From: Candidatus Latescibacterota bacterium
GTDB lineage: Bacteria; Latescibacterota; CBDEFO01
Length of the DNA: 64,000 nt
Assembly: GCA_965237525.1 (NCBI GenBank)
Contig: CBDEFO010000006.1
Coordinates: forward strand, 96,001-160,000
Direction of reading: 5' to 3'
Both the position numbers and the translations under genes were made by a program. Under the pieces are notes generated by a model, which had not been told where the DNA came from, did no database searches, and saw only the letters and a program-made list of their open reading frames with translations. Each line of letters opens with the position of its first letter. Position 1 is the first letter of the stretch. Positions 18,584 through 41,883 of this stretch are shown piece by piece.

Positions 18584-18874
18584 AGATAGACTCAATCGGA
18601 GGTGGACAGGGCAGCACCTCCCATAGCCGAATGTAGGGCTGCGTTATCCATCCCCTACATCTTGTTACCCTGTCAGTTAAGTGTTTTCCCTGCTGTTTCG
18701 TGTTGTTCCCTAACTCTTTATTTATTTAGGCTAACAACCCTTCATCTTTTATGGTGTTTCTTGGCTTTTCACGGTGTTTTTGCTTGTTCCAGTAGAAAAA
18801 CAGTAGAAGTTTGTTAGAAAAGTAAAGGTAAAATTTCCCAGGACTATTCAGTGATCTCAGAAGTGTTGGTTGGG

Positions 18875-19054
18875 TAGGAGCGAAGCAACGTATCATGGCC
18901 AATTAGGGCTCGCTCACCCCCGGATTGAGAACTGTAAAGTCTGTGGCAACATCCAATCCTCTATTGACATCCACTATCTTGTTTTGTATCTTCCCACCTA
19001 ATTGATCTACCCATTTGTATCTTTTCTCCTGATAGATCGACACTAACGATTACG
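18875..19054 (+). promoter_or_regulatory. ~180-bp repeated promoter module, copy 1
   Basis: TTGACA(18964)-17-TATCTT(18987); homologous to 26217-26395 and 32837-32990. Confidence 0.75.
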
Positions 19055-19256
19055 AATACCAACGCCAAGATAGAGTTAAGTAATGGAATGAAATACAAGT
19101 TGGAGAAGCAAGTAGATGAAAAATGAGGTGAAAACAAAGCAATGTTGGTCTTTCACCCAAAGGGATGTATATCTGAGCTTCGGATATCACACTGAAATGT
19201 AAAGATATGAGAAATAGCTCGAATATAAACAAGTTAGCCGAAATTTCCCATAGAAT

Positions 19257-20486
19257 GTGCTTGTCAATGATTCAGAAGGAGCAGCTATGACCGCCAGCGA
19301 TTGCCTCGTGTTAAAGGTTGGATTTATCGGTCTCGGCACTATCAGCAATGAAAATGTTTTGGGCTATCTCGATTCTGAAGATGCTGAAATTGTGGCCACA
19401 TGCGATCTTGATGAAGATCTTGTCAGACAATGGTTGAAAAAATGGAAGTGGCCGCAGGCAAGATTTTATAAAAACTATCAGGATATGCTGACCAAAGAGG
19501 ACCTCGATATCGTAGAGATCCTGACTCCGCATCATTTACACTGTTCACAGACAATGACCTGCGCCAAAGCAAAAGTAAAAGGCATCAGCCTACAAAAACC
19601 AATGGGGGTGAATCTTCGGGAGTGTGATCAGATTATAGAGGCGTGCAAAAAGAATAACATCAAGCTAAGAGTGTATGAGAATTTTATCTTTTACCCCGTT
19701 TATCTAAAGGCTAAAGAACTCATCGACCAGGGGTTAATCGGGGAGTTGATCTCGATCAGAGTGAATACCATGGCCGGAATTAGGGCAGGCGCCCCTTGGC
19801 CTTGGTGTTGGACTCCAACAAGTTGGAGAGCAGGCCTGAAACGGTCTGGCGTTGGGCCTTTGGTGGGAGACGATGGGTATCACAAGTTCTCCCTGGCCCG
19901 TTGGTTTATGGGCAGGGATTTTGAGAAGGTCAGCGCCTGGATCGACTCAGAAACACCGCTGGACGCCCCGGCTTTTATCCGGGCCAAATTTAAACGCCTG
20001 CCGGGAGATGGTCCAAAATATGCCCAAATCGATTTTTCATTCTCGACCCGGATGGCCCTCCCGTCTGATTTTTGGCTTGATGATTTTGTCGAGATTGTTG
20101 GCGAGAAGGGCATCATGTGGATCAATCAATGCTCGGCTGGCGGCAATCGCGAGTTCTTTAAAGCGTGTGAAATGTCAAAAAGTCCGCTCTTTCCGCCGAT
20201 TGCCGTCTTCGTTGATGGCAAGGTGACAACCTATTTAGAGGATATCTCGCCAGAGGAGCGTAATTGGTCAACCTCCTTTATCGGTTGCACCCAACATTTT
20301 ATCAAAGTGATGAAAGAAGGCGGACAACCTATTTACACCGGTGAAGAGGGCAGAGAAATCACCCGGTATACCATCGCCGCTTATGTTTCGGCCCAGGAAA
20401 ACCGGGATGTTTACCTTGATGAGATCACTACGGAGGCCGAAGAGAAAAAGATTTTTGAAATAAAAACCAATTTTTGCAATTTATGA
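19257..20486 (+). CDS. Gfo/Idh/MocA family oxidoreductase
   Basis: GFIGLG Rossmann motif, TPHHLH, QKPM and D.GYH; start may be ATG 19288. Confidence 0.88.
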   Translation: MLVNDSEGAAMTASDCLVLKVGFIGLGTISNENVLGYLDSEDAEIVATCDLDEDLVRQWLKKWKWPQARFYKNYQDMLTKEDLDIVEILTPHHLHCSQTMTCAKAKVKGISLQKPMGVNLRECDQIIEACKKNNIKLRVYENFIFYPVYLKAKELIDQGLIGELISIRVNTMAGIRAGAPWPWCWTPTSWRAGLKRSGVGPLVGDDGYHKFSLARWFMGRDFEKVSAWIDSETPLDAPAFIRAKFKRLPGDGPKYAQIDFSFSTRMALPSDFWLDDFVEIVGEKGIMWINQCSAGGNREFFKACEMSKSPLFPPIAVFVDGKVTTYLEDISPEERNWSTSFIGCTQHFIKVMKEGGQPIYTGEEGREITRYTIAAYVSAQENRDVYLDEITTEAEEKKIFEIKTNFCNL

Positions 20487-20645
20487 GGGGATGGTTCAGG
20501 ATCAGGGTGACACTTTTACACAAACGCCTTGAGGAGAATATGACGTGATACGTGATGACCAATTGACGCATAAATTATTACGTTTCACGCAATGCATTTT
20601 GGGATTATTTTAGGACTGTGGAGCTTTTTTACGAGGAGGTAACTA

Positions 20646-21539
20646 ATGATGAAGGCTACAACTCAGTTACAAAACATGATCGACAACGGTGAATTTGTCG
20701 TTGCCATTGGGGCGCACGACGGGCTGTCAGCGCTCCTGGTTGAACAAGCAGGTTTTAACGCCATCTATATTGGGAGCTACGCGACCGAGGCCACCTTGCT
20801 TGGCAAGCCAGATTTGGCGCTGATGCCCAAGACAGAAAGGTTGATGATTGCCCGGAATATTGTCAAAGCGGTTAACATACCGGTGATTGCTGACATGGAA
20901 GAGGGTTATGGCAATGCTATCAGTGTGATGGATGCTGTGCGAGACTTTGAGGCGGTTGGCCTGGCTGGCGTCCACATTGACGACGAAGCAATTCCCTGTA
21001 AATGCCCTTTCTTACCCGGTATTCCCCGCAACGAGCTCATCACTGTGGATGAGATGTGCGGCAAAGTCAGGGCGGCCATAGATGCGCGGGAAGATCCCAA
21101 CTTTAAGATCATTGTCCGGTCGGACGTCATTGGCACGGTTCCCCTGGAGGATTACTATCGGGAACAGATGATCGAAGCAGTCGTCGAACGGAGTAATGCC
21201 TACGCCGAGGCTGGGGCCGATGCGATCTTTGTCATGGCCCTGAATGTCGAGGAAATCAACTATTTTAAGGAGCGGATCAAGGCACCCCTGGTGGGCATCT
21301 TTGCCACGATCGAACCGATTGCCATTAAGGAATTCGAAAAGGCAGGCTATCAGATGGTTATTGGTTCCCTGGTCTCGCTCTACATGGCGGCCCGGGGGTT
21401 GGTGGATGGCCTGAAAGCCCTCAAAGAAACCGGCGATTGGAATACCGTCCAGGATAAAATGATCGACGATGAGGAGTTCTTCAATATTGTCGGCCTCCAG
21501 GAATACGGGCCGCTGTACGAACGATACAACATCCGTTGA
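20646..21539 (+). CDS. Isocitrate lyase/PEP mutase family C-C lyase
   Basis: HDGLSA, PVIADMEEGYG and AYAEAGAD motifs. Confidence 0.88.
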   Translation: MMKATTQLQNMIDNGEFVVAIGAHDGLSALLVEQAGFNAIYIGSYATEATLLGKPDLALMPKTERLMIARNIVKAVNIPVIADMEEGYGNAISVMDAVRDFEAVGLAGVHIDDEAIPCKCPFLPGIPRNELITVDEMCGKVRAAIDAREDPNFKIIVRSDVIGTVPLEDYYREQMIEAVVERSNAYAEAGADAIFVMALNVEEINYFKERIKAPLVGIFATIEPIAIKEFEKAGYQMVIGSLVSLYMAARGLVDGLKALKETGDWNTVQDKMIDDEEFFNIVGLQEYGPLYERYNIR

Positions 21540-21660
21540 GCAACGTTAAGACCGAATATCAGTCATCAGTGAACAGTGAGCAGTATTCAGTCATCACTGC
21601 TCAGTGGTGACTGAGTTGTCAGCAGATTTCTGGCATACATATTAAGGGAGGAGGATAGCT

Positions 21661-22809
21661 ATGATTCCTTTTGACCAAAACAAGCTAAACACCCTGATGG
21701 ATGAGACAGGGATAGACTTACTTTTAGCGACCACCCGGCACAACATTCGTTATTTGACCGGTGGTTACTACAATTATTACCACGCCAAGATGGAGCGCAT
21801 GGCGGCCACCCGTTACCTGGCCGTGCTTGGTATTCCCAAGGGCCGCCTGGACGAGGCATTTTTTATCAGTGGGCGCAAAGAGATTGAGTCCGTACAGGGG
21901 CACAAGATGTGGATCTCTGACCATCATCTAACCGGCCCAGCGCGCAGTCCGCACTTTCAAAACAACCTGAAGGCCAGCCAGGCCGCGGTGGAGTTGGCCC
22001 GCAAAATGGGATTTGCCGCCGCACGTATCGGCGTCGAGTTGCCATTTCTCCCGGCCGATGCATACACAATATTGCACAGCGAACTGCCTCAGGCAACATT
22101 CATCGACGCCAGCCCCCTCCTCGGCGAACTGCGGGCGGTTAAGTCCGACGCTGAATTGGAACTTATCCGCGGCAACGCCGAAGGGACGGCGGCGGCCATC
22201 CAAGCTACCGTTGCCTCAGGCGCAGCCGGGGTGACCACGACCGAATTGGCGAGACAACTGCAAACCGAACTGAGCCACCGCGGCCTTGAAATGCAATGGA
22301 TTTTGATTGCAATGGGCCCAGATGGAATCGAACGTAAATGGCCATCTGAGCGGGCCTGGCAACCCAATGAAGTGCTACGCCTCGACTCGGGCGGTGGCCT
22401 CAATGACTACCTGGTAGACCTGTGCCGGATGGGCTGCCTGGGGGAATCCTCCAAACTAGCCCGCGAACTCCACGAAAATTGTCTTCTGCTCAGCGACACC
22501 CTCATCCAGGCGATCAAGCCGGGTATGATCTGTGGGGAGCTTTATACGTTGGGGCAGCATACCTTGGCCCAGATGTCATTTGCCGAGTTTGGTCATCAAC
22601 TGACGCATGGCATCGGCTTGGTGACTCACGAGCCGCCAACGATTGCCGCCAACAGCGATCGAGGCCTCGAAGAGGGTATGGTGATGTCGATAGAATCACA
22701 GTTTCAGCATCCAGAGGTCGGCGATGTCAAGATCGAAGATATGGTGATGGTCACCGCAACTGGATGTGAGCCACTGGGGCATAGCGGGCGTGAGTGGCAA
22801 ATCGTTTGA
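21661..22809 (+). CDS. M24 (Xaa-Pro peptidase/creatinase-like) family protein
   Basis: R.VKS..E, D...D, HGIGL..HE, E and KIED metal ligands. Confidence 0.88.
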   Translation: MIPFDQNKLNTLMDETGIDLLLATTRHNIRYLTGGYYNYYHAKMERMAATRYLAVLGIPKGRLDEAFFISGRKEIESVQGHKMWISDHHLTGPARSPHFQNNLKASQAAVELARKMGFAAARIGVELPFLPADAYTILHSELPQATFIDASPLLGELRAVKSDAELELIRGNAEGTAAAIQATVASGAAGVTTTELARQLQTELSHRGLEMQWILIAMGPDGIERKWPSERAWQPNEVLRLDSGGGLNDYLVDLCRMGCLGESSKLARELHENCLLLSDTLIQAIKPGMICGELYTLGQHTLAQMSFAEFGHQLTHGIGLVTHEPPTIAANSDRGLEEGMVMSIESQFQHPEVGDVKIEDMVMVTATGCEPLGHSGREWQIV

Positions 22810-22917
22810 TTTATGAAGGTTAATTAAATAACTCAAGTTGCCACCTGTAATCCACAATGGGGAGTAAGAAGTAGGGATTAGGCCCTTAAGGGCCAGACAT
22901 CGACAAAAAATTGTCGA

Positions 22918-23024
22918 TAATAATTAATTGGTGAATTGACGAATGGTTGAATTGTTAACGGCTTCAACACGCCTTATTAATCATTCACCAATTCACCAAT
23001 TCACCAATTCAACCATTAATTATT
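22918..23024. repeat. Inverted array of 8-mer (CCAATTCA/TGAATTGG) repeats forming a long imperfect hairpin
   Basis: AATAATTAATTGGTGAATTG...CAATTCACCAATTCAACCATTAATTATT. Confidence 0.7.
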
Positions 23025-23283
23025 CTTTTTCCAGCATCGTCTGGAAAAAGACTTAGGAACTTACCCATTGAATCCTTGCCCATTGAGCAAGAAGTCGGTG
23101 AACGTGACAAGATGAGGGGATGAAGCTCATCCCCTCATCCTCCCCTTTTGGTTCTGGCTCGTCCAGGTTAGGGATTAGGGAGAACCCCCCCTACTTCCGG
23201 CATATGTGGTCAGGAATGGTTGATTTTTTGGCTATTTATTTGGCAAGGTAGTAACTTGGGTTAAATAATAAGGATGGTGAGTC

Positions 23284-23691
23284 ATGAATGCAAGCCTCTG
23301 GAATATAGGTATGAAAGTTGAAGATATGGATCAGGAAATCGACTTTCTGGAAAAACTTGGGGCCAGACTTTTATTACACGAAACCCTTCCAAGACCCGAC
23401 GGGGATGCTGAATACGCGTTCCTGGATTTGGGCGGGACTCGTCTGTTCCTGACGCCAAAGCCGATCTATGAAGACAAACTCAGCTATCAACTGCTGTCCG
23501 GGTTAACGCATGCGGTCTTCGAGGTTGATGACCTCGATAGCGAGTACAAACGGATCAAAGCCTTGGGCACGGAAGTGCTCATCGAGCCGGTCGAGATCAG
23601 CGCCGGGTTCGGATCGCGTCGCATTTCCTTCTTTCGCTCGCCCAACGGCCTTATCTTCGAAGTGATGCAAATTCTGGAATCGAAGATGTAG
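23284..23691 (+). CDS. VOC/glyoxalase family protein
   Basis: THAVFEVDDLD and RISFFRSPNG.IFE. Confidence 0.88.
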   Translation: MNASLWNIGMKVEDMDQEIDFLEKLGARLLLHETLPRPDGDAEYAFLDLGGTRLFLTPKPIYEDKLSYQLLSGLTHAVFEVDDLDSEYKRIKALGTEVLIEPVEISAGFGSRRISFFRSPNGLIFEVMQILESKM

Positions 23692-23715
23692 TTCTTATAT
23701 AAAGGAAAGATTGAT

Positions 23716-24807
23716 ATGAGTCAGACTGTTCAAGCGGCTGTCATGATGCATCCAGGTAAGATCGAGATCCAGGCGTTTCCTTATCCGAAGTTAGAGAGGA
23801 TGGGGCCTTGCTTCTCAAAGTCGAAATGTGTGGCATCTGTGGCACAGACAAGCACACCTGGCGGGGCGAGACGAAGCAGTACGCCGGCACCGAAGCCGAA
23901 TCCGACACCCCCTTCCCCATCATCCCCGGCCACGAAGTGATTGGGACCGTCGCTGAAATTAATGATCGCAACCGCCCCCGCCTGGATTTCAACGGTGAAC
24001 GCTTGCGGGTGGGGGATCGGGTGGCCTTATGCCCGGACGTGATCTGTGGTGAATGTTACGATTGCCGGCATACTTTTGCTTTCCCCTGGTGCGAGAACTT
24101 GCGCGGCTATGGCAATGCCTTTACCGCAACCGAACCCCCTCACTTGTTCGGCGGGTGGGCAGAATATATGTACATTTTGCCGAATGCCTTTTTGTACAAA
24201 GTCCCCGAAAATCTACCGCTGCGAGTCGCCGTCATGGTGGAGTTGATGGCCGTTAGCTATAACCTGGATAAGACAAAGGAATTCTTCACCCTCTCAGGCG
24301 AAGGATTCGCCACGGATAGTACGGTTGTCATCCAGGGCGTCGGACCTTTCGGATTACCGCTTGGCTCTGGCCAAAGAGTTTGGCGTTGATCACATCCTCA
24401 ACATAGCCCAAACAAGCGAAGATGAGCGAGTCGAGTTTGTCCGATCACTCACCCGTGGCCGGGGGGCAGATATTGTTGTAGAGTGTGCCGGTGTGGCCGA
24501 AGCGGTGCCGGAAGGGTTGGAGATGCTGCGTAAGGGGGGTATTTACATCGAGGCCGGTAATTTTGTCGAGACGGGCGAGGTGTCACTAAGTCCACACCGT
24601 CACTTTTGTGCGAAAAATATTCGCCTGATCGGCATGACCAATCACCCCTTCACCGGCTACACCCCCAGCCTGGAGTTGATGCAAAGGCAGGCTAATCTTT
24701 TCCCATTTGAGAAGTTTGTGACGCACGAATATCCCTTGGCTCAGACTGAACAGGCCATGCTCAAATCGCTGGAACCGGACTGTATGAAAGTGGTCGTTGT
24801 GCCCTAG
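23716..24807 (+). pseudogene. Zinc-dependent (MDR) alcohol dehydrogenase, disrupted
   Basis: CGICGTD, GHE and CxxCxxC...C motifs; frameshift near 23800; internal deletion at ~24342 joins GVGP directly to DLSDYRL. Confidence 0.85.
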
Positions 24808-24833
24808 AAGATGTAAACGAGGAGTAAAGATAC

Positions 24834-25433
24834 ATGCTAACAAGGAATCTGGACCTAAAGAAGCGATTACGGGCCGGTGAGATGACCTTTGGCGCCTGGA
24901 TATCCTTCTCAGATCCGGCGATTGCCGAGATAATGGCCGGGATGGGCTTGGACTGGCTATTGATTGATGCCGAACATAACCCATTTACTTTAGAGAGCCT
25001 GTTCCACGTTCTCCTGGCCTTCAAGGGTCAGCCCACCGTACCGATTGTTCGCATCCCGTGGAATGACCCCATCATCATCAAGCAAGCCCTTGATCTGGGT
25101 GTAGGTGGTATCCTCATCCCCCACGTCTCCTCGGTCGAGGAAGCCAAACAGGGGGTGGCTGCTTGCAAGTATCCCCCGGAGGGCCGGCGCGGTTTTGGGC
25201 CACGGCGAGCCTCTGACTATTATCGTCAGACTGAAGCATACGTTCGCGTGGCGAATGAAGCGGTGGTCATTGTGATCCAAATTGAGCATATTGATGGGGT
25301 CAAGGCCGCCAGGCAGATTCTGGAGGTACCGGGTATTGACGTTGTCATGCTAGGTCCGATGGATCTGTCAGGCTCACTCGGCCTGTTGGGCCAGTTGGAT
25401 CACCCTCAAGTCGGCCAGGCGATAGAGCAGGTC
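24834..25433 (+). pseudogene. HpcH/HpaI aldolase, 3'-truncated
   Basis: IDAEH, VRIP, YPP.G.RG, QIE and GP.DLS motifs; homology stops at AIEQV, where it meets a converging gene. Confidence 0.85.
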
Positions 25434-25997
25434 GGGGGCCGGGGTGACTTTCCAGATACCGTCTTTCAGCTCTGCGTCCTTCACCTGCAGATACGGATCC
25501 TTGTTGTCGGCGTTGGGAGTCCGGGCTCGAGTGGCTCGCTTGCCATCAACAAACAGTTGGCGAAAGTACCATTTCTGCGCCCTAACTTGTGGCAGTTCGA
25601 CGGCCCATATCTTGCCAGGCCCCTGTTTCCAGCCGGTGATTCTTCTTCCCCCGCTGATGATCGGTTTCTCACCAGGATAGGCCACATAGGTGATCGAGAA
25701 TTTGTAAGTCCCCGAATCTACCGGTCCCAGAACTAGCGGTTCTTTCATTTCATAAGTGCCACCTCGAAGATACACAACAATGTTGGCCGTCTGCCCTCTC
25801 TTAGTCCATTCTCTGACTGCGTCCCGAGCTCTAGTGAGGCCGGCGAATGGCTTCTGCTTGGTGCCGGGATTGTTGTCATGACCGGTCGGTGAAACATAGA
25901 ACTCCACCGGAGTTTCAGCCCTAAGGTCTCCAGCTTGCAATAAAATGGCCATCAATAGCACAGCTGCAAACACCATTATTGCGGATAACTGTTTCAT
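25434..25997 (-). pseudogene. Secreted right-handed beta-helix (GH141-like) protein, 3'-truncated
   Basis: Signal peptide; FYVSP.G.D.NPGT...PF...ARDAVR, V.LRGGTY, AYPGEKP.ISGG and RQLFVDG.RA.RAR.P; ends after ~185 aa. Confidence 0.8.
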
Positions 25998-26216
25998 CTG
26001 AGCTCCTTTACATAACTGAAATTTAGCGGACAAGCCGCCGTCGAAGCGGTCCCATATGACCCTTGAATACCCAACCTGTCAACACAACCTGCCGAAGTAT
26101 AGTCTTATCCAACGGATGTTGTCTCCGTATACCTAACATAAGATCAGAGCAACAACAAGTCAACCCGAACTGCAAAATATCAGAGCCATTCAGCTTTTTC
26201 AGACGTTCCGGTCGAA

Positions 26217-26395
26217 TAGGAGCGAAGCAACGTATCAAGACCAAGCAGGGCTCGCTCACAACCGGGCAGAGAACTGAATGCCCCTGCGAGAACGTCCAAT
26301 TCCTATTGACATCCGCTATCTTATTTCGTATCTTCCCTCCTAATTGATCTACCTATTTGTATCTTTCTCCCGATTGATCGACACTGACGATTACG
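26217..26395 (+). promoter_or_regulatory. ~180-bp repeated promoter module, copy 2
   Basis: TTGACA(26306)-17-TATCTT(26329); lies upstream of the BNR gene pair. Confidence 0.75.
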
Positions 26396-26531
26396 CAAAA
26401 TTGTAGAGACTGTGACAGAAGTTGCGTGGAATATCTCTGGCAAGGCAACTTTTGTTGAAATTGTCCTTTTGCTTAGAATGTAACCTTTGACTACCGCGTA
26501 AAGAGAAAACCATCGAAAGGAGAAGAGAGAG

Positions 26532-27734
26532 ATGAATGACTCACCACAGCAGCCCTTTCAGGACTTCATTGCCATCCGAAACCCGCGCCAGCTAACGGCG
26601 GCAAAGCTACAAGCCGAACGGGTTCCGGTGGGCCAAAAGCTTGAGAACAAGCCCAACATCGCATACCTGGGTGGAAATGAGTTACTGCTATTGTGCTACA
26701 AGTTCGATTTCGAAGAAGGGCTACCCACCTATCTGTATCGTTCGCACGACGGCGGTCGGACCTGGGAGGGAGGGCGTAACACCACCAGCCTGCCGGACGG
26801 CGGTGAGCCCTATTTGTCGCAAATGCGAGACGGCACGCTGTTGGTAACGGGAGGCCCGTGGGGGTACCGTTCGGAGGACAATGGGCACACCTGGTCCCAA
26901 TACCAGTTGCCTCCGGAATTTGCCACCAGGGTCAGGGGGAACAACTCGCGAAATATACTGCAGTTGGAAGACGGTTCGTTGCTGCAGATCGTGGATATAC
27001 CTAAAGACGATCCGCCTCTTCGCCATTCTCAATACGGGGACGAACACGTCGCCCGGAGCTTCGATGGGGGTCGGACGTGGCCGGACTGCTACACGATGGA
27101 AGTAGAAGGGGTACCGGAAGGCTATCCCTGGTCCATATTTGGAGAGGTAGTGCTCTGGCAGGCGCGTTCCGGGAAGATTTACGGCATAGCCAGGGTTGAT
27201 CATCGGTTCTGTCCCCTTCCGAGGCGCGAGCTGACCCCCCAGGAACTCGGCAACGCTGCCATCACCATGCTTCACTACAGTGAGCCCCCTGCTCAGAGTA
27301 TTGCCGAACTGGACTTTGACCAGTTCCATAGAATGAAAGCTTTCTTCTCCACCGACGAAGGCCACACGTGGCAGGCCGGTGAGGATTTGGGAGACTATGG
27401 CCGCATGTTTCATTCCATTCTGCGGTTGAGGGATGGGCGGTTGCTGTTTACTTATACTCAGCGCTCGATCGATCCTCCGCTCGGCGTCCGTGCGGTACTG
27501 GGCCGTGAAACCGAAGACGGCTTTGAATTCGATTTCGAGCACGACGTTTTCATGATTGACACCAGAACTCCCATCGGCCGCTCCTCGGGACATGGTTTCG
27601 GCAACACTGTCGAACTCGACGACGGTACACTTGTAACCAGCTATTCCTATTGGCGACCTGACGTCGTACCGTCGGACCCGCCGATACCGCCCAAACTCTT
27701 CAATTGTGAAGTGGTTCGCTGGCGTTTGCCGTAA
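26532..27734 (+). CDS. BNR/Asp-box (sialidase-like beta-propeller) protein, paralog 1
   Basis: Asp boxes SHDGGRTW, SEDNGHTW, SFDGGRTW and STDEGHTW; no signal peptide. Confidence 0.88.
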   Translation: MNDSPQQPFQDFIAIRNPRQLTAAKLQAERVPVGQKLENKPNIAYLGGNELLLLCYKFDFEEGLPTYLYRSHDGGRTWEGGRNTTSLPDGGEPYLSQMRDGTLLVTGGPWGYRSEDNGHTWSQYQLPPEFATRVRGNNSRNILQLEDGSLLQIVDIPKDDPPLRHSQYGDEHVARSFDGGRTWPDCYTMEVEGVPEGYPWSIFGEVVLWQARSGKIYGIARVDHRFCPLPRRELTPQELGNAAITMLHYSEPPAQSIAELDFDQFHRMKAFFSTDEGHTWQAGEDLGDYGRMFHSILRLRDGRLLFTYTQRSIDPPLGVRAVLGRETEDGFEFDFEHDVFMIDTRTPIGRSSGHGFGNTVELDDGTLVTSYSYWRPDVVPSDPPIPPKLFNCEVVRWRLP

Positions 27735-27907
27735 GAGTAGGCCGGGATGCTGCGCAACACCCGATTCTGTTGGTGGAGGTATATCTCACCATGACCTGTG
27801 GGGATTCGTTGCCAGACCGCCGTTACGCCAGAGCATCCGCAGTCCTCTTGGAGAGGATGAGAGCAAGATTAGTGTGATAACCCTACCATCGAAAGGAGAA
27901 AACGGAG

Positions 27908-29116
27908 ATGAATGACTCACCACAGCAGCCCTTTCAGGACTTCATTGCCATTCGAGACCCGCGCAAGCTAACAGCAGAAAAGCTGCAAGCCGAACGGGTT
28001 CCGGTAGGCCAAAAGCTTGAATACAAGCCCAACATCGCACACTTGGGTGGAAATGAGTTGCTGCTATTGTGCTACCTGTGCGATGCGGCACCGCCAGCAG
28101 TGTATCCCACCTACCTGTATCGTTCGCACGACGGCGGTCGGACCTGGGAGGGAGGGCGTAACACTACCGGCCTGCCGGACGGGGGCGAGCCCTATTTGTC
28201 TCAAATGCGAGACGGCACGCTGTTGGTAACGGGAGGCCCGTGGGGGTACCGTTCGGAGGACGATGGACACACGTGGTCGGAATACCAGTTGCCTCCGGAA
28301 TTTGCCACCAGGGTGAGAGGGAACAACTCGCGAAATATAGTGCAGTTGGAAGACGGTTCGTTGCTGCAGATCGTGGATATACCTAAAGACGATCCGCCTT
28401 CTCACCATCCTCAATACGGGGACGAATACGTAGCCCGGAGCTACGATGGGGGTCGGACGTGGCCGGACTGCTACACGATGGAAGTAGAAGGGGTACCGGA
28501 AGGCTATCCCTATTCTATCTTCTCCGAAGTGGTGCTGTGGCAGGCGCGTTCCGGAAAAATATACGGCATAGCCAGGCTTGATCATCAGTTCTATCCCCTT
28601 CCCGGGCGGGTGTTCACCCCCCAGGAGCTCGGAAACGTGGCCATAACCCTGCTACACTACGGGCAGCACCCTGTGCAGGATATTGCCGATACGGACTTTG
28701 ACCAGTTCAGCCGAATGAAAGCCTGGACTTCCACCGACGAAGGCCACACGTGGCAGCTCGGTCCGGACCTGGGCGACCACGGCCAGATGTTTCATTCCAT
28801 TCTGCGGTTGAGGGATGGGCGGCTGCTGTTTACTTATACTCAGCGCTCGATCGATCCACCCCTTGGTGTTCGTGCAGTGCTCGGCCTTGAAACCGAAGAC
28901 GGCTTTGAATTTGATTTCGAGCACGACATCTTCATGATTGACACCAGAACACCCATCGGCCGCTGCTCGGGTGGAGGTTTCGGCAACACCGTCGAGCTGG
29001 ATGACGGGACTCTTGTAACCAGCTATTCCTATTGGCGACCTGACGCCTGGCCACTGAACCGGCCGCATCCGGAGAAACTCTTCAATTGTGAAGTGGTTCG
29101 TTGGCGTTTGCCGTAA
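27908..29116 (+). CDS. BNR/Asp-box protein, paralog 2 (tandem duplicate)
   Basis: Highly similar to paralog 1, including the RBS region and ~120 bp downstream. Confidence 0.88.
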   Translation: MNDSPQQPFQDFIAIRDPRKLTAEKLQAERVPVGQKLEYKPNIAHLGGNELLLLCYLCDAAPPAVYPTYLYRSHDGGRTWEGGRNTTGLPDGGEPYLSQMRDGTLLVTGGPWGYRSEDDGHTWSEYQLPPEFATRVRGNNSRNIVQLEDGSLLQIVDIPKDDPPSHHPQYGDEYVARSYDGGRTWPDCYTMEVEGVPEGYPYSIFSEVVLWQARSGKIYGIARLDHQFYPLPGRVFTPQELGNVAITLLHYGQHPVQDIADTDFDQFSRMKAWTSTDEGHTWQLGPDLGDHGQMFHSILRLRDGRLLFTYTQRSIDPPLGVRAVLGLETEDGFEFDFEHDIFMIDTRTPIGRCSGGGFGNTVELDDGTLVTSYSYWRPDAWPLNRPHPEKLFNCEVVRWRLP

Positions 29117-29457
29117 GAGGAAGCCGATATGCTGCACAACAGCTGGTTCTGTTGGTGGAGGTATATCTCACCATGACTTGTGGGGATCATGCGTTGCCAG
29201 ACCGCCGTTACGCCAAAGCATCCGCGGGCCTCGTGGAGAGGGCGGATTCGGCAACAAAATTCAACAATAGCGCGAGTTTTTAAATGGATCTATGACCTGA
29301 GAGAAGGTGAACCTTTCTATGACTGGTGAAAATCTCTACTGTAAAGTAGACAGGTGACGATTTTCTACCCCGGGAAATTCGATTGTGAGTGTGATATAAG
29401 TTTATTGACCTAATTTTCAAGTCTGAAAGGTATCGATATGGAATGGCATTGTCTTAG

Positions 29458-30976
29458 AAGCCTTGTGAAAAACCCTTAGATTCAGAAAATAGTATAAAAC
29501 AAGCACTGATAAAGCAGCTCCGATGTATTATATTATGTTATTGATAATATTATACATGGAGGAAACAATGACCCCACAAAAGCAGGAACAGACAAATCCG
29601 ATGTTTCACTATTTTCAGATGGAGGATTTAGTTCCCGAGGATCATATCCTTCGTCAGATTGATGAGGCAGTTGATTTTTCATTTGTACGAGACGTTGTAT
29701 CAGATTGTTATTGCCCTGACAATGGCAGACCCGGTATTGATCCTGAATTAGTTGTTCGAATGATCCTTATTGGCTATCTGTATAATTTGAGTGAGAATCG
29801 GCTCTGTCAGGAAGTGGGGACGCATGCGGCATATCGGTTGTTTTGTCATCAGACATTTGATGATGCGGTTCCGGATAGGAGCACGATCAACAAGCTTCGC
29901 AATCACAAGTGGGCATCCAGTGGGTTGTTTGAACGGATAATGCGTCAGGTAGTCCAGTGTTGCATAGATGTCGGTCTTGTGAGCGGTAAACACCTTAGTG
30001 TCGACGGCACTCAGATACAAGCTGATGCTTCAGTGAAAAGTATTGAGCCGATAGAACCCCCTGTTTCTCTTGATGATTATCTCAAGGGAATCGGTTTTGA
30101 AGGTGATAAGACAAAGGGTAGGTCCGGGCATCCTCAGGATAAAGACTTTCATGGTGAAAAGTGGACGAACCAAACACACCGTTCGACTACAGACCCCGAC
30201 GCGCGCTTATACAGCAAATCGAAGGGCAAAGGGGCTTTTCTCTCGTTTATGGGCCATGATCTGATCGACACAAAAAGCAGAGTAATCCTTGAGACTCAGG
30301 GCACGCAGGCGACAGGGACAGCAGAGCCCGAAAGTGCCCTTAAGATGGTAGATGACCTTGAAACATACACCATGCCCAAAGACATTCAGACACTTAGTGC
30401 CGATACCGGTTACGGTTCTGGTAATTTTATCGCTGATGTACTTGACCGGGGAATCATACCCCATATTCCTCTGCGAGCCGATGAGAGGATTGAACCGATT
30501 CCTACATGGAAAAACAAGACAAATCCAGCACATATTCAGGCCGAACGGGATAGAAAAGTGCGAGAGGCGAAAGCCAGAAATCATGCACGGTCTATCTCAT
30601 TAACAGCTGACTACAAACTCTCCCGGAGACTCCGTAAACGCAGTGAACATATCTTTGCTGAAGCCAGGCAACAACACGGTATGGGACGAGCCCGTTATAG
30701 AGGACCAGCCTCACTGAATGAACAGTTGAATCTTGTTGCAACAGTACAGAATCTCAAGAGGCTTGTATCTTTCATAAGAAGGGGGAAAGCGTCTATGTGT
30801 GCCCTGCCTGTCAAAGACAGTGCATCCTGTTCTTCAAACAGCTCCTGTTCCTTGCTGACCAGAACTCTGATAAGACTATTTTGCTTATTCCACAGCAAAA
30901 CGATACGATATGCTACTCTTTGACCCATAATCGGCGCTTCAGACGCTGCCTGGGACATAACTATTTCACAAGGCTT
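29458..30976 (+). mobile_element. IS1182-family insertion sequence
   Basis: 13-bp inverted repeats AAGCCTTGTGAAA / TTTCACAAGGCTT; 4-bp target duplication TTAG (29454-29457, 30977-30980). Confidence 0.92.
29568..30923 (+). CDS. IS1182 transposase
   Basis: VPEDH.LR.ID, GRPGIDP, VDGT.I.ADAS, STTDPDA, ADTGY and R.RSE..FAE. Confidence 0.93.
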   Translation: MTPQKQEQTNPMFHYFQMEDLVPEDHILRQIDEAVDFSFVRDVVSDCYCPDNGRPGIDPELVVRMILIGYLYNLSENRLCQEVGTHAAYRLFCHQTFDDAVPDRSTINKLRNHKWASSGLFERIMRQVVQCCIDVGLVSGKHLSVDGTQIQADASVKSIEPIEPPVSLDDYLKGIGFEGDKTKGRSGHPQDKDFHGEKWTNQTHRSTTDPDARLYSKSKGKGAFLSFMGHDLIDTKSRVILETQGTQATGTAEPESALKMVDDLETYTMPKDIQTLSADTGYGSGNFIADVLDRGIIPHIPLRADERIEPIPTWKNKTNPAHIQAERDRKVREAKARNHARSISLTADYKLSRRLRKRSEHIFAEARQQHGMGRARYRGPASLNEQLNLVATVQNLKRLVSFIRRGKASMCALPVKDSASCSSNSSCSLLTRTLIRLFCLFHSKTIRYATL

Positions 30977-30993
30977 TTAGTGTAATAAGTATT

Positions 30994-32739
30994 ATGTTTT
31001 GCCTTGCGGCCATTTTGCCTCATGCTGGTTGTGGGGCAAAGTCTGCGGCAGAGGGAGAAACCGAGATGCTCAAGATCACCGTCGGCGAGCCGACGTTACT
31101 GGATCCACTTGCGTATTTTAATTCCGCGAGCGTGGCTGTCTCCCGGACCGGGGTCGTAGCGGCTTTCTATCCATGGGCGCAGCGTCACAGAACGTCCACG
31201 GACGGCGGGGTCACCTGGGGGCCGGAGATGGATTCTCCTCCCCAGCTGGGCGGCGGCAGCAGCAGCGGAACCCTGCGCGATGGAGGCGTGATCAAGTATC
31301 TGACCACGGGTGACGAAACCATAGGCGAAGCGGAGGAACACGTAAGCCTGATGGTGGGAGAATATAAAGAAGGCTGGTTCATGCTGCACTCGACGTTTGC
31401 CTGGTTCAGCGACGACTTTACGCAATATGAAGTCGCCCCGGTTCAGGTCTACATGCCCGACGCCGTCACCACCAAGCAGATCCATCTGGCCATGTCCTCC
31501 TGGCCGATCTTCGAGAGGGGCAATATTCTCCATCTGGACAATGGCGATCTGCTAGCGCCCATGTACGGTGTGTTCAAAGGCGACACCAAGAGTCGTGTGG
31601 TGCTTTCGGTCTCCAGCGATCGCGGCCACAAGTGGCGTTACTACGCGACGGTTGCGACCGGAGCGAGGGACCCGAACCCTGAGCTGCCGGGACAATACCT
31701 CGGCTACGGCGAGCCGAGCATCGAGCTGCTGCCTAACGGACAGATGATCTGTGTCATGCGCACGCAGTACTCGCACCTGCCCGGCGAATACCGGCCGATG
31801 TCCGTGTCGTGGTCAAATGATCGCGGCAGGACCTGGACCAGGCCGATACCCACCAAGCCGCACCTGATGAACATCGCTCCGAAGCTGATCGTTCTGGAGA
31901 ACGGCGTCGTCGCCCTCGAGTATGGCCGGCCGGGCTTCCATGTCGCTTTCAGTATCGACAACGGGCATACCTGGCAGGACCGCGTCAGCTTGTCCCATCT
32001 GCCGGAACCCATGATTACCGGCCAGTTTGACATGGCAAAAGCTGGCCCGAACAAGCTGGTGGCCATCGGCAGCGATGGCGAGGGTACGAAGGTGTGGCCA
32101 ATTAAGGTGGAGCGTGTGAAAGTATCACCAGCTCACGGGAGCTTAGACGGCCGTGTGTTGGATCAACAGGGCAATCCAATTGTCGGCGCAAAGGTCGAGC
32201 GCAGCCCTAACCGCTACACGGCCGACGATTGGCTGGAAGACCCCACCACATTAGATCCCTGGGGGCACGGAAGTCCCCTGACGGTCGGCTCACCAAAATT
32301 GGGGTACAGATCGATCCGTAATGGAAATGGACACCCGACGGTGCAGACGGATGCCTAGGGACGCTTCCGATTCGACTCGGTAAAGCTTGGTGAATATGTA
32401 CTGACCGTAGAAGCTGACAGTTACGCTCCCCAGCATCGTCATATCAAGATTCAGCCAAGGCCGCAAAAGCAGCAGTTCCGTTTGAAGGCTGGTCGAAAAG
32501 TTTGTCATCGAGTTGTGGATAACCGAGGCCGGCCGGTTCCAGGCGCATGTGTCGTGCTGAACAGATGGCACGTCCATACCGATCTTGCTGGTTTCTTCCA
32601 CTGGTCAGTGGAGGTCCCGCTGCCAGAGCAGGTGGAGATCAGCGTTTACAAGCGCTATAGCGGTCAATATGAGAAACTCAACGCAACAGTGCCGTTCTCA
32701 GAGCTGGAGCGCCAGCCAATCATCCTGCGACCCAGGTAG
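30994..32739 (+). pseudogene. BNR/Asp-box protein with carboxypeptidase-regulatory-like domains; signal peptide split by IS1182, in-frame TAG
   Basis: Removing the IS restores MEWHCLSVISIMFCLAAIL from ATG 29438; after TAG 32356-32358 the frame continues GRFRFDSVKLGEYVLTVEAD... Confidence 0.8.
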
Positions 32740-32836
32740 GGTCAAAGGTACTCGGGCGGTACACAAATTCTTTCATAATTGAACTTGGGACTCAGCGAAG
32801 TTCCCGCCCCGGAGCCTTAACAGGTGTCGGTAGAGC

Positions 32837-32990
32837 AGAAGCGAAGCAACGTATTGGGAGCAAGCAGGTACCACTGATCCCCAGACTTAGAATTGAATGC
32901 CCCTGCGAGAACGTCCAATTCCTATTGACATAGGCTGTGTTATTTTGTATCTTCCCACCAAATTGATTCGTATCTTACCCTTGCATCTTT
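32837..32990 (+). promoter_or_regulatory. Repeated promoter module, copy 3 (more diverged)
   Basis: TTGACA(32925)-17-TATCTT(32948); shares TGAATGCCCCTGCGAGAACGTCCAATTCCTATTGACAT with copy 2. Confidence 0.7.
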
Positions 32991-33121
32991 CCCCTCGAAT
33001 ATAAACCCGCCGTGCTATTGAGTCACTGATAAGTAGAACAACAGAAAGTGCATGACGCAACTGCACACTCTAAAAGTTGCACAGTATTCTGAACTTCGAC
33101 AGAAGATGTCCCAAAGGGGGG

Positions 33122-34401
33122 TGACGTGAACCCCAAAGACTGGACAGATGCCTTAGCAAGTTCTATAATTACTGATGTAAAGGTTTAAAAAGAGTCCAGA
33201 AAGGGGTTGTCATGTCATCTAAACGCCGTATCTTCACTCATGAGTTCAAGCTTGAGTGTGTATTGGATGTGTTAAGTTGTCGTAAGAGTCCTGCTCAGAT
33301 CTGTCGGGAGCGCGACTTGAGTGAGTCGTTGTTGACCCGGTGGCGGCAGCAATTTGTTGATCGAGCTCCCAAGATATTTGAGATCAACTCCCAACAAGCC
33401 AGTGTCGAGGCGCAACGCATTAGAGAGTTAGAGCGTCTTGTAGGGTGTTTGACCCTGGAGTTAGAAGCCTCAAAAAAACTCTCCGGCTACTTCGCCTTTC
33501 GGTAGCCCAGAAGAAGGAGTTGGTCCGTCAAGTGGAGAATGAGTTTGACATCGGTTTATTGTGTAACGTAATAGGTTTGGCACGTAGCAGCTTTTATTAT
33601 ACTTGTGAGGTTTCAGATGACCAGGGACTGAGAAAGGCGATTGAGGGCGTCTGTTTACACCATTGTCGTTACGGGTATCGGAGGGTGACCCCGATGCTCC
33701 ACAGGGGACAATACCGGGTGAACCATAAAAGGGTTCTACGGTTGATGAAACAGATGGGCTTGTTGGTACAGCCCAGACGGCGCAAGGTGCTAGCGACCGA
33801 AGGCAAGGCCCACGAGCCTCCTTTCCCCAATCTGTTGAAGGGTCTTAAGATCAAACGTCCTGACCAGGTATGGTGTGCGGACATCACCTACATTTTCTTG
33901 GCGAACGGTTCTATGCTTTATCTTGCTCTGGTTTTGGATATCTTTACCCGTATGATACGGGGTTGGGCTTTGAGTCGTAGTTTGTCTGGGGCCTTGACGC
34001 AAGAAGCGCTTTTCAAAACATTCGAGAGAGGACACCGGCCACAGATACACCATTCGGATCGAGGGTCTCAATACACTGCGCATAGCTATTGTCAAGGGCT
34101 TTGGGAAGTAGGTGCCGAGATAAGCATGGCATCCAAAGGAAAAGCTTGGGAGAATCCGTTTGTGGAAAGCGCGATTGGTCACCTGAAGGATGAGGAGGTA
34201 TGGCAGCAAGAATACGTGGATCTTGAGGATGCCTTGGTGCATTTGAGTCACTTTCTGGATGTGGTTTACAATCACCAGCGTATCCACTCAGCACTGGGTT
34301 ATCTGACGCCTGGAGAATTCAAGGCACAGTATGAAGCACAAGATTGCAAAAAACTTGCTTAACCCGTCCGTTTTCGTGCTCAGAAAAATGGGTTCACGTC
34401 A
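33122..34401 (+). mobile_element. IS3-family insertion sequence
   Basis: TG...CA ends with inverted repeat TGACGTGAACCC / GGGTTCACGTCA; no target duplication seen. Confidence 0.92.
33212..34362 (+). CDS. IS3 transposase OrfA (33212-33505) and OrfB, joined by a -1 programmed frameshift
   Basis: OrfA HTH; A7 run at 33472-33478; OrfB YGYRR, W..DITY, HHSDRGSQY, EN..VES and HSALGYLTP. Confidence 0.92.
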
Positions 34402-34655
34402 CCTTCCACTGAAGGCTGAATTAACCTAACTTTTCCGTTCACCAGCAAATCGTCTACAAATTGGAGAAAGGTGTCATACATTTTGCGTCGCAGAAGGGCG
34501 ACGCCTATCGAGTATAAAGCAAACTCAGAAAGATAGGCGCTATCCAAAGGAATAATGCGCAAGAACTGCTCTGCCTGATCCCGATAGATTCAATCGGGGA
34601 CTCTATCCTGTTTCAATAGAAGTTCCAGGGAGATACTGCTATCAATCAAATACAC
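34402..34655 (-). pseudogene. PIN/VapC toxin, interrupted by a palindrome-derived TGA and truncated by IS3
   Basis: Manual translation MYLIDSSISLELLLKQDRVPD*IYRDQAEQFL...SEFALYSIG; start overlaps the antitoxin stop. Confidence 0.75.
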
Positions 34656-34881
34656 TTTCTTCCCACCATTTTAATATTTTATGCTGAAGCTCCACCGATG
34701 TGTATTGATCCTTCATATCCTCTAAAGCCCCCTTCCAGTTGAGCTTTAACTGACTCTTACCTTTGGGCTTTTTTCGCACATGTTTCCGTATCAGGAATTC
34801 TACAAAGTCCACTACCTCTTGCCGAAGTTCAGGAGGCAGTTCTTTGACCTTTTCCTTAATTGTTTCCTCAATGGTTGACAT
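34642..34881 (-). CDS. DUF2281 antitoxin
   Basis: LPPELRQEV.DFVEFL...W.GAL......TSVELQH....W. Confidence 0.85.
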   Translation of the reverse strand: MSTIEETIKEKVKELPPELRQEVVDFVEFLIRKHVRKKPKGKSQLKLNWKGALEDMKDQYTSVELQHKILKWWEESVFD

Positions 34882-34929
34882 AGCTATACTCCTTGGCTGT
34901 GGGGCGAGGGAATCTCGCCCCTACGTTAC

Positions 34930-35877: not shown

Positions 35878-37698
35878 CTAATTAGACGCCTTTGGTAGAG
35901 GATGCTTGCTAAATTTATCTAGACTGGCGATCAAATCCTTGATCTCCATTGGTATTTCATCTATTGTCATGCTGTTGGCAACATTCGCTAGAGATACAGC
36001 AATATCATACGACTCCTGTAAATAACTATTTAGCTTAGAGAAAACAATCTTTCCAGGAACTAGGCAAAGCCGAGTTGCAAGATCTTCCCACAAATCCTCA
36101 AATTTCTCCAGTTCTGCGGCTGTGATTGTGGCTACATCTGTTCCGGGGGTTTTCTCTTTCGCATACTCTGCCCTCCTCGCAAGATTTTGGGCATTAACCT
36201 CATGCTTTAGCGGCTCCGTAATAGATTGTAGGATGGAGCCGATATCTTCCGAAAATTTGGTTTTCTTTCCCGTGCGTCTATTCTGTTCATCGATTCTAGC
36301 CTCTATCGCCCGATGTAGGGAACTTGGTCGCAGCAGAAAATTTTCTATCTCTTTTCTCCGGTGTATATGGGCTAATACAGCAAATTCGCTAAGTTCGTTT
36401 TCAACCTCCTCGATCTGCTTGTCAGATCTGTAATCCCGGTCCAGAATCACGCCTTTCGAAATTAGTCCACCTAACGTCAGTTCCATGCCTTCTGACAAGT
36501 CTTTAACCTTGCGGGGGTTAAAACCTCCTATGGGAATAACGGCGAAATTGATACAATTTGCAACGTCTTGCTTACCTAACTTGCGACAAAAAGTTGAAAG
36601 AATGTGGAAGTCTTTGCCCTCAATAAATAGTGCTCTTTTTGCCACGGCAAGCCGTGTTAGCGTTGGGTTCATGTTTGACCCTAACTCCTGCAATATCTTG
36701 TGACGGCCAGAAGGGTCTTTCAACCGTTTGGCAGACTGTAACTGCTTGTTAACGACTAGGAGATCACCAAGCTGCGATTCTGCAATGATTTCAGTCGAGT
36801 GAGTTGCAATCAAGATATCTGGCCCGAGACCTTCCAAAAGAGCTAAGAGTTGTCGTTGCAGGTCCGAATGAAGATAAATATCTGGTTCATCTATCACCAG
36901 CAGGGAATCACTCCTGGACCGAATCGCGTAGGTAAGCATTTGACACCAGACTTGGAATCCAAAACCTGCCCAATAAATTTCTCGGTTGAACCTTTTTTCA
37001 GGACAGAACATGTAAAGTGTTCAGGGCTTGCCCTGCCCATACTGGACTTCAGGCGGGTTAATATCCATTCCGGGCCACGTCCCCTGTATCAATTCACGAA
37101 ACTCGTCAAAATCTTCCGGTATATGATACCAGATATTACGAAAATTTCGCGATGCGCGATGTGTTAACAATGCCTGACGGGCCGCTTCTGGCTGGTATAA
37201 TTGTTCCTCATGCTCTACTGGACCCAAGACCGGAACGAACCCAATAGTAGCTGGGAACACTCTCTTAAAGTCGGATGGCGTTCGAACGGGCTTACCGTTA
37301 TTCTCACAAACCAAATAGCACATTCCAACTTCTGGAAATATGAGTCGTAAGGTGTTCCCGTTGGACAAGCGAAAATCAATCCTAGCCGGATCTGTTTCAT
37401 CATAGTCTGTGAAGACGTTTTCTGTCGAAACTGGAAGATTCTCGAGATCAATTCTATATCCCCAGTCCGAGTCTCCCCTGATGTAGACGAATTGCGGTTT
37501 GCGGGCTCTTGCTCTCCTAATTCCTTCTGCAAGGATACGAAATGCCCCCAAGATTGTTGACTTCCCTGAGTTGTTGGGGCCAACTAGTACATTGAATCTT
37601 TGCAGTGAAGCGGAGTAACTCTTGAACGCCTTGTAGTTTCTAAACCGAACAGCGGTAAAACGGGCCATCGGGTCCATCTGACTCTCCTGTTGCGACAT
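35878..37698 (-). pseudogene. ABC/AAA ATPase with TOPRIM-like domain (OLD-like), one in-frame TGA
   Basis: GPNNSGKS, IDEPD.YLH, ATHS, IEGKD, LDRD and EIEN; the two ORF-track pieces share one frame and are separated only by TGA at 37021-37023. Confidence 0.8.
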
Positions 37699-38343: not shown

Positions 38344-38428
38344 TTCGTTATTTAAGCTAACTATAATTACACAGTGTGCATAATTTTGCCGCTCCCATAT
38401 CTAGTGATACCGAAGGAGCAACTACTGC

Positions 38429-38488
38429 GTCCAACGCTATGCGCATCAGCTGCGGCGATCGGGCGTCCGGTGTAGCGCCTTGTTTGCT
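38429..38488 (-). other. attC-like integron recombination site
   Basis: On the minus strand, directly after the methyltransferase stop: AGCAAAC-AAGGCGCTACACCGGACG...GCTGATGCGCATAGC-GTTGGAC. Confidence 0.65.
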
Positions 38489-39379
38489 TTATTTCGCCCA
38501 CCCTATAGGATGATGCGTTACTCCATATCGCTGATTAGCCAGCTTCGTCAGTAAACCCCATGGCAGCAGCGCTTCAAATAAGCTTTTTCTCCTTATTCCC
38601 AGATTCTTAAGGATTTTGAAACGAATGATGTCCGACCAACCTGGGAACCATCTGGTAAACTCGGCTTTGAATCCAGTCTTCTCCAGGGCATAAAAGAGTG
38701 TTTCTGGCTCATAATAGCTAGTGTGGATCTCGGGAATCACATAGGACCACTTTGTAATCTTGTGCCGAAAGGGCCTGGCGTTTCCTGTAGTGAAGAAGAA
38801 TAGTCCCTGGGGTCTAATCAACTGCCTGATTTTTTCGAGAATCTGGATGGGGTCAGGAATATGTTCTAACACTTCAATAGCCGTAACAATATCAAACTTC
38901 TTGCTCATATTTTCAAGCTGAACAGACTCAAGCAAGGGAATACCGAGGGCCTTTGCGCGGGTAACTATTTCGCCTTCGTCAAAACCATAGATTTCGGCTA
39001 ATCTCTTCTGATGAACGTACCTGACAAGACCTCCATTGCCACATCCGTAGTCCAACCACCGCGTTTGTGGGGAAAGGGTTATGAGATCTTGAATCACACT
39101 GACAAGACCCCTCCATTCATACTGTCTGATCGTTTCTTCTGGATGTTCAAGCTCAAAGTAATAATCCACCAGCGGATCAGCACCTTGACCGCGATAATAT
39201 CCCTCTGTGTAAATCTGTTCGTAATCTAATATTGGGTTGCCAACAAACGCAAAATGGCAGTGAGAACACCGATAGATCGAAAACTCTCTTGGCCCAAACT
39301 TCCCAAGCTTAAACTTCCCAGCTATACGTTCCGTCTGTTTTGCAGCACAATCACAGATTGGACACTTTAGATAGTTCAT
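38489..39379 (-). CDS. Class I SAM-dependent methyltransferase with N-terminal zinc ribbon
   Basis: CPIC/CSHC, LDYGCGNG and EVLEHIPDP; preceded by GTTATGC. Confidence 0.88.
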   Translation of the reverse strand: MNYLKCPICDCAAKQTERIAGKFKLGKFGPREFSIYRCSHCHFAFVGNPILDYEQIYTEGYYRGQGADPLVDYYFELEHPEETIRQYEWRGLVSVIQDLITLSPQTRWLDYGCGNGGLVRYVHQKRLAEIYGFDEGEIVTRAKALGIPLLESVQLENMSKKFDIVTAIEVLEHIPDPIQILEKIRQLIRPQGLFFFTTGNARPFRHKITKWSYVIPEIHTSYYEPETLFYALEKTGFKAEFTRWFPGWSDIIRFKILKNLGIRRKSLFEALLPWGLLTKLANQRYGVTHHPIGWAK

Positions 39380-39405
39380 AAGCATAACTTATGATTACAG
39401 AGTCT

Positions 39406-41854: not shown

Positions 41855-41883
41855 TTGACAGAAGAACAAATTTTCATTACATT
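41855..41883 (+). promoter_or_regulatory. Sigma70-type promoter for the Rep module
   Basis: TTGACA-17-TACATT. Confidence 0.6.

Follow-up and report, generated by a model that had tools for sequence, protein, structure and literature searches.

A dispersed promoter-like repeat in a Latescibacterota genome is probably the inner part of the attachment-site ends of decayed tRNA-targeting elements

Introduction

Genomic islands integrated in tRNA genes most commonly use the anticodon subsite as their attachment (att) subsite, according to the Islander survey (PMC4383910). For the phage mv4, a recent study reports experiments showing a 7-bp overlap and adjacent pairs of 11-bp arm sites at each arm end (10.1101/2023.11.06.565760). 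Putative mobile promoters have been surveyed separately, and how they move was described as unknown (PMC3575422). Here, we describe a dispersed repeat with a promoter-like core found in a 64,000-nt stretch of DNA (hereafter, the window) from a Candidatus Latescibacterota bacterium (G000; 4.58 Mb, 8 contigs; window at C6:96001-160000), with a sister genome of the same genus (G001) used for comparison. This repeat probably represents the inner portion of attR-type ends left by decayed elements that target tRNA genes; it likely carries a promoter and likely provides the homology for swapping ends and leaders.

The blocks of the repeat are referred to as A (outer arm), B (spacer), C (promoter core) and D (leader). 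Coordinates without a contig or locus name are those of the window, and features of its variable region are on the forward strand unless otherwise stated.

Results

A sequence-only reading of the window had proposed a promoter module of ~180 bp in three direct copies. The three copies are real: their mean column identity is 75% (pairwise 84%, 68% and 75% over the first 150 nt), their matches are far above chance (BLAST E-values as low as 1e-47), and all share the 15-mer AGCGAAGCAACGTAT (18879, 26221 and 32840) and the promoter-like core TTGACA-17-TATCTT (18964, 26306 and 32925). In addition, GATCGACACTRACGATTACG is present in copies 1 (19035) and 2 (26376). However, neither the proposed size nor the proposed number was retained. 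Copy 1 reaches ~200 bp further to the left, to 18670, and a BLAST search with this copy and its flanks showed other loci to match over ~300 bp upstream of TTGACA. Furthermore, a 423-position model built from 12 copies (threshold E<=0.01) gave 50 full or partial matches in the genome, a few short ones of which correspond to another repeat. The model covered copy 1 from positions 2 to 415 (18673-19075), copy 2 from 163 to 422 and copy 3 from 189 to 389; copies 2 and 3 are devoid of the att arm. The 180-bp unit is only the inner part of an integrative-element end of ~420 bp. The short matches, at model positions 162–205 (C8:544109 and loci L025 and L056), belong to another tandem repeat and were excluded from the copies. 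This complex repeat of ~260-350 bp, with inner hairpin arms and variable units of 15–17 bp (L025 17850-18900, C8:543900-545000 and L056), adjoins a module copy and has a short stretch in common with the start of block B.

The sharp 3' end described for copies 1 and 2 was not confirmed either. Beyond GATTACG, copy 1 still matches C4:141648 and copy 2 still matches C7:418768, and the end points of homology across copies lie at about +32, +46, +90 to +107 and +118 to +135 from TTGACA. An autonomously moving miniature inverted-repeat transposable element or insertion sequence (IS) end would account for the many dispersed copies, and IS3-type elements often adjoin the repeat. However, no terminal inverted repeats were found among the 25 longest inverted repeats listed, no target duplication was found at copy 1, the repeat has no fixed ends, and it bears no likeness to the ends of the IS3 and IS1182 elements of the window; this origin is extremely improbable. 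The sequence ACTGTGACAGAAG, in which copy 2 ends, was also considered as an IS end and dropped, since it has no partner end and is unlike the IS ends of the window. Noncoding RNA and terminator readings were dropped as well: six pieces folded no better than shuffled sequences (z -0.29 to 1.03) and the copies contained no terminator-like match. An Rfam search of the window identified a tRNA-Gln only, with no family for the repeat copies.

Comparison with an island-free allele identified the outer limit of copy 1. Identity between G001 and the window runs to 18676 and resumes at 34903, and run X4 yielded one 3.9-kb contig with the same island-free structure, the filled form also being present there at lower depth. 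The left junction is exact at 18676, and the last letters common to both alleles are CTGTCAG (18670-18676), a 7-bp core at a non-tRNA site that differs by one mismatch from the tRNA-Ala loop heptamer and is likely an attR-type crossover overlap. Since identity with the island-free allele ends at the core of copy 1, this copy is the left end of the insertion, and the earlier proposal that the module is tied to island boundaries holds here, where both boundaries coincide. The whole variable region (18677-34902, no strand assigned) corresponds to an island of ~16 kb, in place of which the other allele has 265 unrelated bp. The region is also represented in runs X2–X9. Two joints between copies 1 and 2 in run X2 (18791 to 26218 and 19003 to 26427) have short sides and may involve paralogous copies, and they were not used as evidence of deletion.

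Block A (18677-18832), the att arm, is present in 12 copies in G000, six of which have a tRNA 3' fragment no more than 30 bp away (Ala-GGC, two; Arg-ACG, one; Arg-CCG-like, three). Given the 10 such fragments in the genome, this association has a binomial p of ~5e-21. The fragments extend to the anticodon loop, the module starts directly after the loop, and the core position at these tRNA-linked copies is that of the anticodon-loop heptamer; unlike these six arms, that of copy 1 is at a non-tRNA site. The latter arm contains two to three direct repeats of 11 bp with a GTAGAA core (18790-18822). G000 has 11 occurrences of the doublet GTAGAA-N5-GTAGAA, nine in module arms and two directly behind integrase remnants, a distribution suggesting that the doublets likely act as integrase arm-type sites; such direct repeats were recognized on both arms. 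In the first 34 rows of a set of 80 metagenome loci with related integrases, an 11-bp period was detected near the integrase end at 20 loci, versus 0 to 4 for the other periods from 8 to 15, and a tRNA gene faces the integrase within 200 bp at 29 of the 80 loci. Tandem islands occur at tRNA-Ala on C3 of G000 (tRNA at 22424, fragments at 30998 and 64388, and integrase tails at 22567 and 31097). The outer part of the repeat is best described as the attR-type, integrase-distal end of a tRNA-targeting island.

An association with a tyrosine recombinase gene, which had been suggested as a check, was found. Arm doublets recur behind integrase stop codons, and G001 contains an intact phage-type tyrosine integrase of 376 aa (P0015), behind which the 19-nt doublet of copy 1 recurs identically. 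P0015 is preceded by excisionase-, primase/polymerase-, helix-turn-helix (HTH)- and terS-like genes, and PHROGs matches at this locus (L053) comprised the integrase, the excisionase, a primase-type replication gene and terS, the latter separated by cargo and an IS. The L053 element is missing from the matching G000 site, and all the G000 integrases of the P0015 kind, including those on C4 and C3, are remnants. The site adjacent to P0015 is uninterrupted in G000 (C3:234876-234895). In G001 it is split, with one flank next to the integrase end, the other next to a module arm 91% identical to that of copy 1, and 20 bp, ending in CTGTCA, present twice. At a metagenome locus from another organism (L066), an integrase, a doublet, a tRNA-Met fragment, a doublet and a TTGAC...TATCTTCCC motif follow one another. 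The gene content suggests that the parent element was satellite-like, resembling phage-inducible chromosomal islands (PICIs) and tycheposons. The region 6247-19961 of L053 can itself be described as a largely intact PICI-like element, with P0015, the excisionase, an 853-aa primase/polymerase, HTH genes, FG-GAP cargo and terS.

A second integrase family has a TGGACAC-N4-TGGACAC doublet, and two of its nine doublets have the core 101–105 bp behind them, the remainder including doublets behind integrase remnants or facing tRNA-Thr. A second family of decayed elements, with TGGACAC-N4-TGGACAC doublets on both arms, was observed at tRNA-Thr genes (C3:397636, C3:249462, C8:386380, C8:1363347 and 1363611). 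A 403-aa integrase that ends in a C-terminal zinc ribbon is present twice in G001 (L039 and L040); the checks made revealed no relation between it and the module.

BLAST with copy 1 gave matches in G000 and G001 only, among 41 genomes, and G001 was the sole match to a decayed integrase fragment among the genome contigs searched. Exact scans yielded no promoter pattern in the metagenome contigs searched and no arm pattern in the viral contigs searched. Literature searches identified no published description of the repeat, although the supplements of island surveys could list such elements. A likeness to the DR2 repeat of Tn916 was not confirmed, the literature search giving nothing.

The core TTGACA-17-TATCTT is likely a promoter and matches the main promoter class of the host. 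Of 4950 TTGAC[AT] sites outside the repeat family, 472 have TAnnnT at 17 nt, versus 44–159 for other spacings; TATCTT (59) ranks second among the -10 boxes of these non-family sites. The core is under apparent constraint, consistent with its reported conservation: in copies picked by block B alone, 10 of 12 keep TTGACA and have no indel between the boxes, whereas B itself has indels. It is also reused, as expected, before unrelated genes (Gfo/Idh/MocA, BNR, FG-GAP, M19 dipeptidase and asparaginase), and the distance from TTGACA to the first long open reading frame (ORF) is 293, 226 and 287 bp for copies 1 to 3, respectively. The 32-nt core has 23 matches in G000 within 5 mismatches, where the null never exceeds 1. 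Within 7 mismatches there are 30, against a mean of 0.3 and a maximum of 11 in the null, and within 9 there are 46, against a mean of 4.5 and a maximum of 34. In this null, which replaced a too-lenient shuffle of the whole consensus, both boxes were fixed and the spacer was shuffled; we consider a count of 23 to be safe and one of ~30 to be likely. A degenerate core pattern was found 22 times in G000 and 24 times in G001.

These counts also bear on whether the cores are host regulon promoters with an operator, alike through common function rather than copying. The frequency of TATCTT outside the family and the loose matches before the IspDF and FolD genes are compatible with such a regulon. 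However, at most one match within 5 mismatches was obtained in the null, the homology is 100–400 bp long in many copies, and none of the 149 other genomes in the phylum sample contained the core pattern. A regulon of this kind is therefore very unlikely. A palindrome, TGTGACA-N5-TGTCACA (up to 3 mismatches), lies downstream of nine of the 46 cores, and could be either an operator or a site of recombination.

The blocks on the two sides of the core are combined in several ways. With classes assigned to the 46 cores by motifs of our own choosing, upstream class B was found with D1 (four cores), D2 (one) and D3 (one), and upstream class E, which includes the end of the second integrase family, with D1 (one), D2 (two) and D3 (four); 14 cores belonged to no class on either side. 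Copy 2 and C7:418768 have the downstream part in common but not the upstream part, and the converse is true of copy 1 and C3:30711. One orthologous insertion in G001 retains the C4:141356 flank and cargo but has the block B of the C8:133489 paralogue, and this conversion patch switches back at TTGACA. In the window, the BNR cargo lies downstream of a core preceded by B; at C6:231778 and in G001, it lies downstream of a core preceded by E. The mobile unit therefore consists of promoter, leader and cargo. Deletions also occur, with the promoter fused inside a BNR gene at C8:546109 and lost at C8:1964753. Arrays of BNR-repeat genes akin to the window cargo (70–90% identical) were observed at C6:225824-231174, C3:38000-45600 and C7:433600-450000, showing that the cargo genes undergo tandem amplification.

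Copies 2 and 3 could alternatively be remains of tandem islands from which the outer arms were later deleted, the promoter having no role in shuffling. The tandem islands at tRNA-Ala on C3 and the random deletions at C8:546109 and C8:1964753 are in line with such decay. However, neither copy 2 nor copy 3 is preceded by a core, a doublet or an integrase tail; both lie behind other upstream blocks, which recur elsewhere. Exchange between copies is also needed to explain the conversion patch and the full mix of block classes. We thus regard decay of this type as unlikely, and favor exchange at the common promoter.

The module had been likened to the Pc promoter and attI site of integrons. The idea of a promoter plus attachment-site unit stands in part, as a promoter-like core and an att site are both present, but the att site is upstream of the promoter and not at the 3' end facing the cargo. 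In an integron-like system, a tyrosine recombinase would insert promoterless genes at an attI-type site 3' of a Pc-type promoter. The unrelated cargo behind the copies and the IntI-like fragments in the genome could be viewed in this way, and the palindrome could be the recombination site. However, the recombinase is of the phage type, neither of the two genomes has a TIGR02249 (IntI) match above the cut-off, both containing fragments only, and a home-made, uncalibrated scan found no attC-like site in 18677-34902 and three genome-wide. There is no single fixed insertion point 3' of the promoter, the ragged ends of homology being spread over 100 bp (about +32 to +135). Copy 1 has no such palindrome behind it and that of copy 2 is broken, and the att core, upstream of the promoter, is the attR end of the element itself. 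An integron-like origin is highly improbable.

In the island, the arm of copy 1 is followed by block B (18833-18955), the spacer between arm and promoter delimited by the repeat model and containing AGCGAAGCAACGTAT, by the core (18964-18992), which is directed into the island, and by D1 (18993-19075), likely a 5' leader, in which repeat comparison revealed an internal duplication of ~32 bp. Next is a separate repeat of ~140 bp (19100-19245), with nine other matches in G000, a tail that elsewhere is found behind an XerD/IntI-like integrase remnant (at C8:1061328). Several copies of this repeat stop at one common point (here CAAG/TTAGCC), which may resemble an attI-type end. Cargo 1 (19257-25736) consists of catabolic genes and is mostly missing from G001; it encodes Gfo/Idh/MocA, PEP-mutase/ICL family, M24 peptidase, glyoxalase, HpcH aldolase and split zinc alcohol dehydrogenase proteins, the last (23808-24807) being broken across two reading frames.

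Copy 2 (26176-26421) consists of B, the core (26306-26334) and D1, and ends in ACTGTGACAGAAG (26409). It has no arm and no att core; another upstream block (26062-26175), in common with C7:423863, replaces the arm. It is followed by cargo 2 (26532-29116), a tandem BNR-repeat pair with equivalents at C6:231778 and in G001, a multicopy IS1182/IS5-type IS (29454-30980) and a third BNR-repeat gene (30994-32358). Copy 3 (32746-33027), also armless, comprises another upstream block (32746-32820), B, the core (32925-32953) and D3, and a unit 90% identical to it is present in the tRNA-Ala island of G001. As originally noted, copy 3 faces an IS3 element (33122-34401). This element has no target duplication, which hints at an adjacent deletion, albeit weakly, as two of the three genome copies likewise have none.

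REP-like short palindromes are present at 18585-18609, 34574-34602 and other positions, one of them just beyond the left end of the island. A short minus-strand ORF (34790-34885) looks by eye like what we take to be the remnant of an antitoxin from a toxin-antitoxin pair. Tandem 20-bp and dispersed repeats (38362-40241 and 41071-43111) lie near an ssb gene and a gene for a 381-aa HTH_36/DnaA_N protein, and this region looks like a replicon remnant with iterons. A split AAA ATPase (35878-37698) and an intact OLD-like ATPase-TOPRIM gene (48296-50296) are possible defence genes.

Discussion

Taken together, the comparisons show that a satellite-like element with a phage-type tyrosine integrase inserts at a 7-bp core, in a tRNA anticodon loop or at a CTGTCA-like non-tRNA site. 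The far end of such an element has the order core, arm with 11-bp doublet, spacer and promoter, and copy 1 is an end of this kind. The host sigma-70-type polymerase would then read TTGACA-17-TATCTT and transcribe any cargo located behind it. The 30–120 bp common to all copies around the promoter likely allow homologous crossover or gene conversion, which would generate the mosaic pattern visible in the copies, with its various combinations of upstream block, leader and cargo, and armless inner copies such as 2 and 3. Finally, the integrase end of the window island would have disappeared along with 265 bp of host DNA, leaving the island immobile unless complemented.

Several observations weigh against this scheme. 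The island-free allele is not a clean attB, as 265 bp are replaced on the right side, the first 190 bp of this alternative sequence having no match in G000. The window island has no integrase end, and neither an integrase remnant nor an arm doublet was found at its right end; we infer that the integrase end was deleted together with some host DNA. No circle junction of this island was seen in the contigs. In G001, the two ends of the split site are ~302 kb apart, with intervening DNA that has matches on several G000 contigs, which requires a later rearrangement. The boxes at L066 are 19 nt apart, not 17. In addition, 16 of the 46 loose core matches, including the loosest, before the IspDF and FolD genes, have 8–9 mismatches and may be ordinary host promoters, the null reaching 34 at that threshold. 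A single clear conversion patch was found, and only two genomes (G000 and G001) carry the repeat.

The source and route of a reused promoter are traceable in this lineage. If recombination at a common promoter does drive cargo exchange, then islands would keep reshuffling and expressing genes after the death of their integrase. For an uncultured phylum, the system also offers a candidate strong promoter and a ready att/integrase pair (P0015).

The repeat has features in common with several described systems. Islander-type tRNA islands similarly have a tRNA gene at one end, a displaced 3' fragment at the other, a tyrosine integrase, crossover in the anticodon loop and tandem arrays, whereas the window copy is at a non-tRNA site, has lost the integrase end and has its distal end partly repeated inside the cargo (PMC4383910). 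The mv4 attP resembles our arms in its 7-bp overlap and 11-bp arm pairs, and measures 215 bp versus an estimated ~260 bp here; however, the sequence and integrase differ, a promoter block lies beyond the arm, and the arm sites are defined here by sequence only (bioRxiv 10.1101/2023.11.06.565760). Tycheposons and PICI-like satellites also combine an integrase, an excisionase, a primase, terS, metabolic cargo and tandem tRNA insertion, and their decayed remnants build islands. They occur in another host phylum, the likeness is one of gene content, and no repeated promoter is described in the accessible part of that report (bioRxiv 10.1101/2020.12.28.424599).

The repeated sigma-70-like promoter of ~100 bp in the promoter–stem-loop (PeSL) cassettes of T4-type phages likewise occurs in variable regions, before unrelated genes and in copies made chimeric by recombination, and the present repeat likely acts in a similar manner, as a recombination anchor. 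However, it belongs to the chromosome of a bacterium and is linked to att arms, with no stem-loop terminator and no mini-circles seen, and it is not a PeSL cassette, because it has no stem-loop (PMC2839356). It is conceivable, though doubtful, that it is a cellular counterpart: a strong satellite-end promoter spread to 25–45 sites, serving two integrase families and the chromosome as a standard crossover point for trading catabolic cargo that is ready for expression, captured by core genes such as ispDF and folD, with the palindrome placing the cargo under one regulator.

Integrons also have a promoter for foreign genes near a tyrosine-recombinase site, but here there is no intact IntI, the uncalibrated scan found no attC-like site in the island, the att site is upstream, and the cargo travels with leader and promoter (PMC4889954). 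Putative mobile promoters are closely similar non-coding stretches before non-paralogous genes in one genome. Copies 1 and 2, with 84% identity over 150 nt, are within the identity rule of that survey (>=80% over >=50 nt, non-paralogous genes), but the window copies lie outside its position range of -150 to -50 from the start codon. Unlike those promoters, which are mostly pairs, the repeat described here has at least 23 copies, a traceable source and a visible conversion patch (PMC3575422). The repeat is thus a new, lineage-specific combination of known kinds of parts, namely the att ends of tRNA islands and reused promoters.

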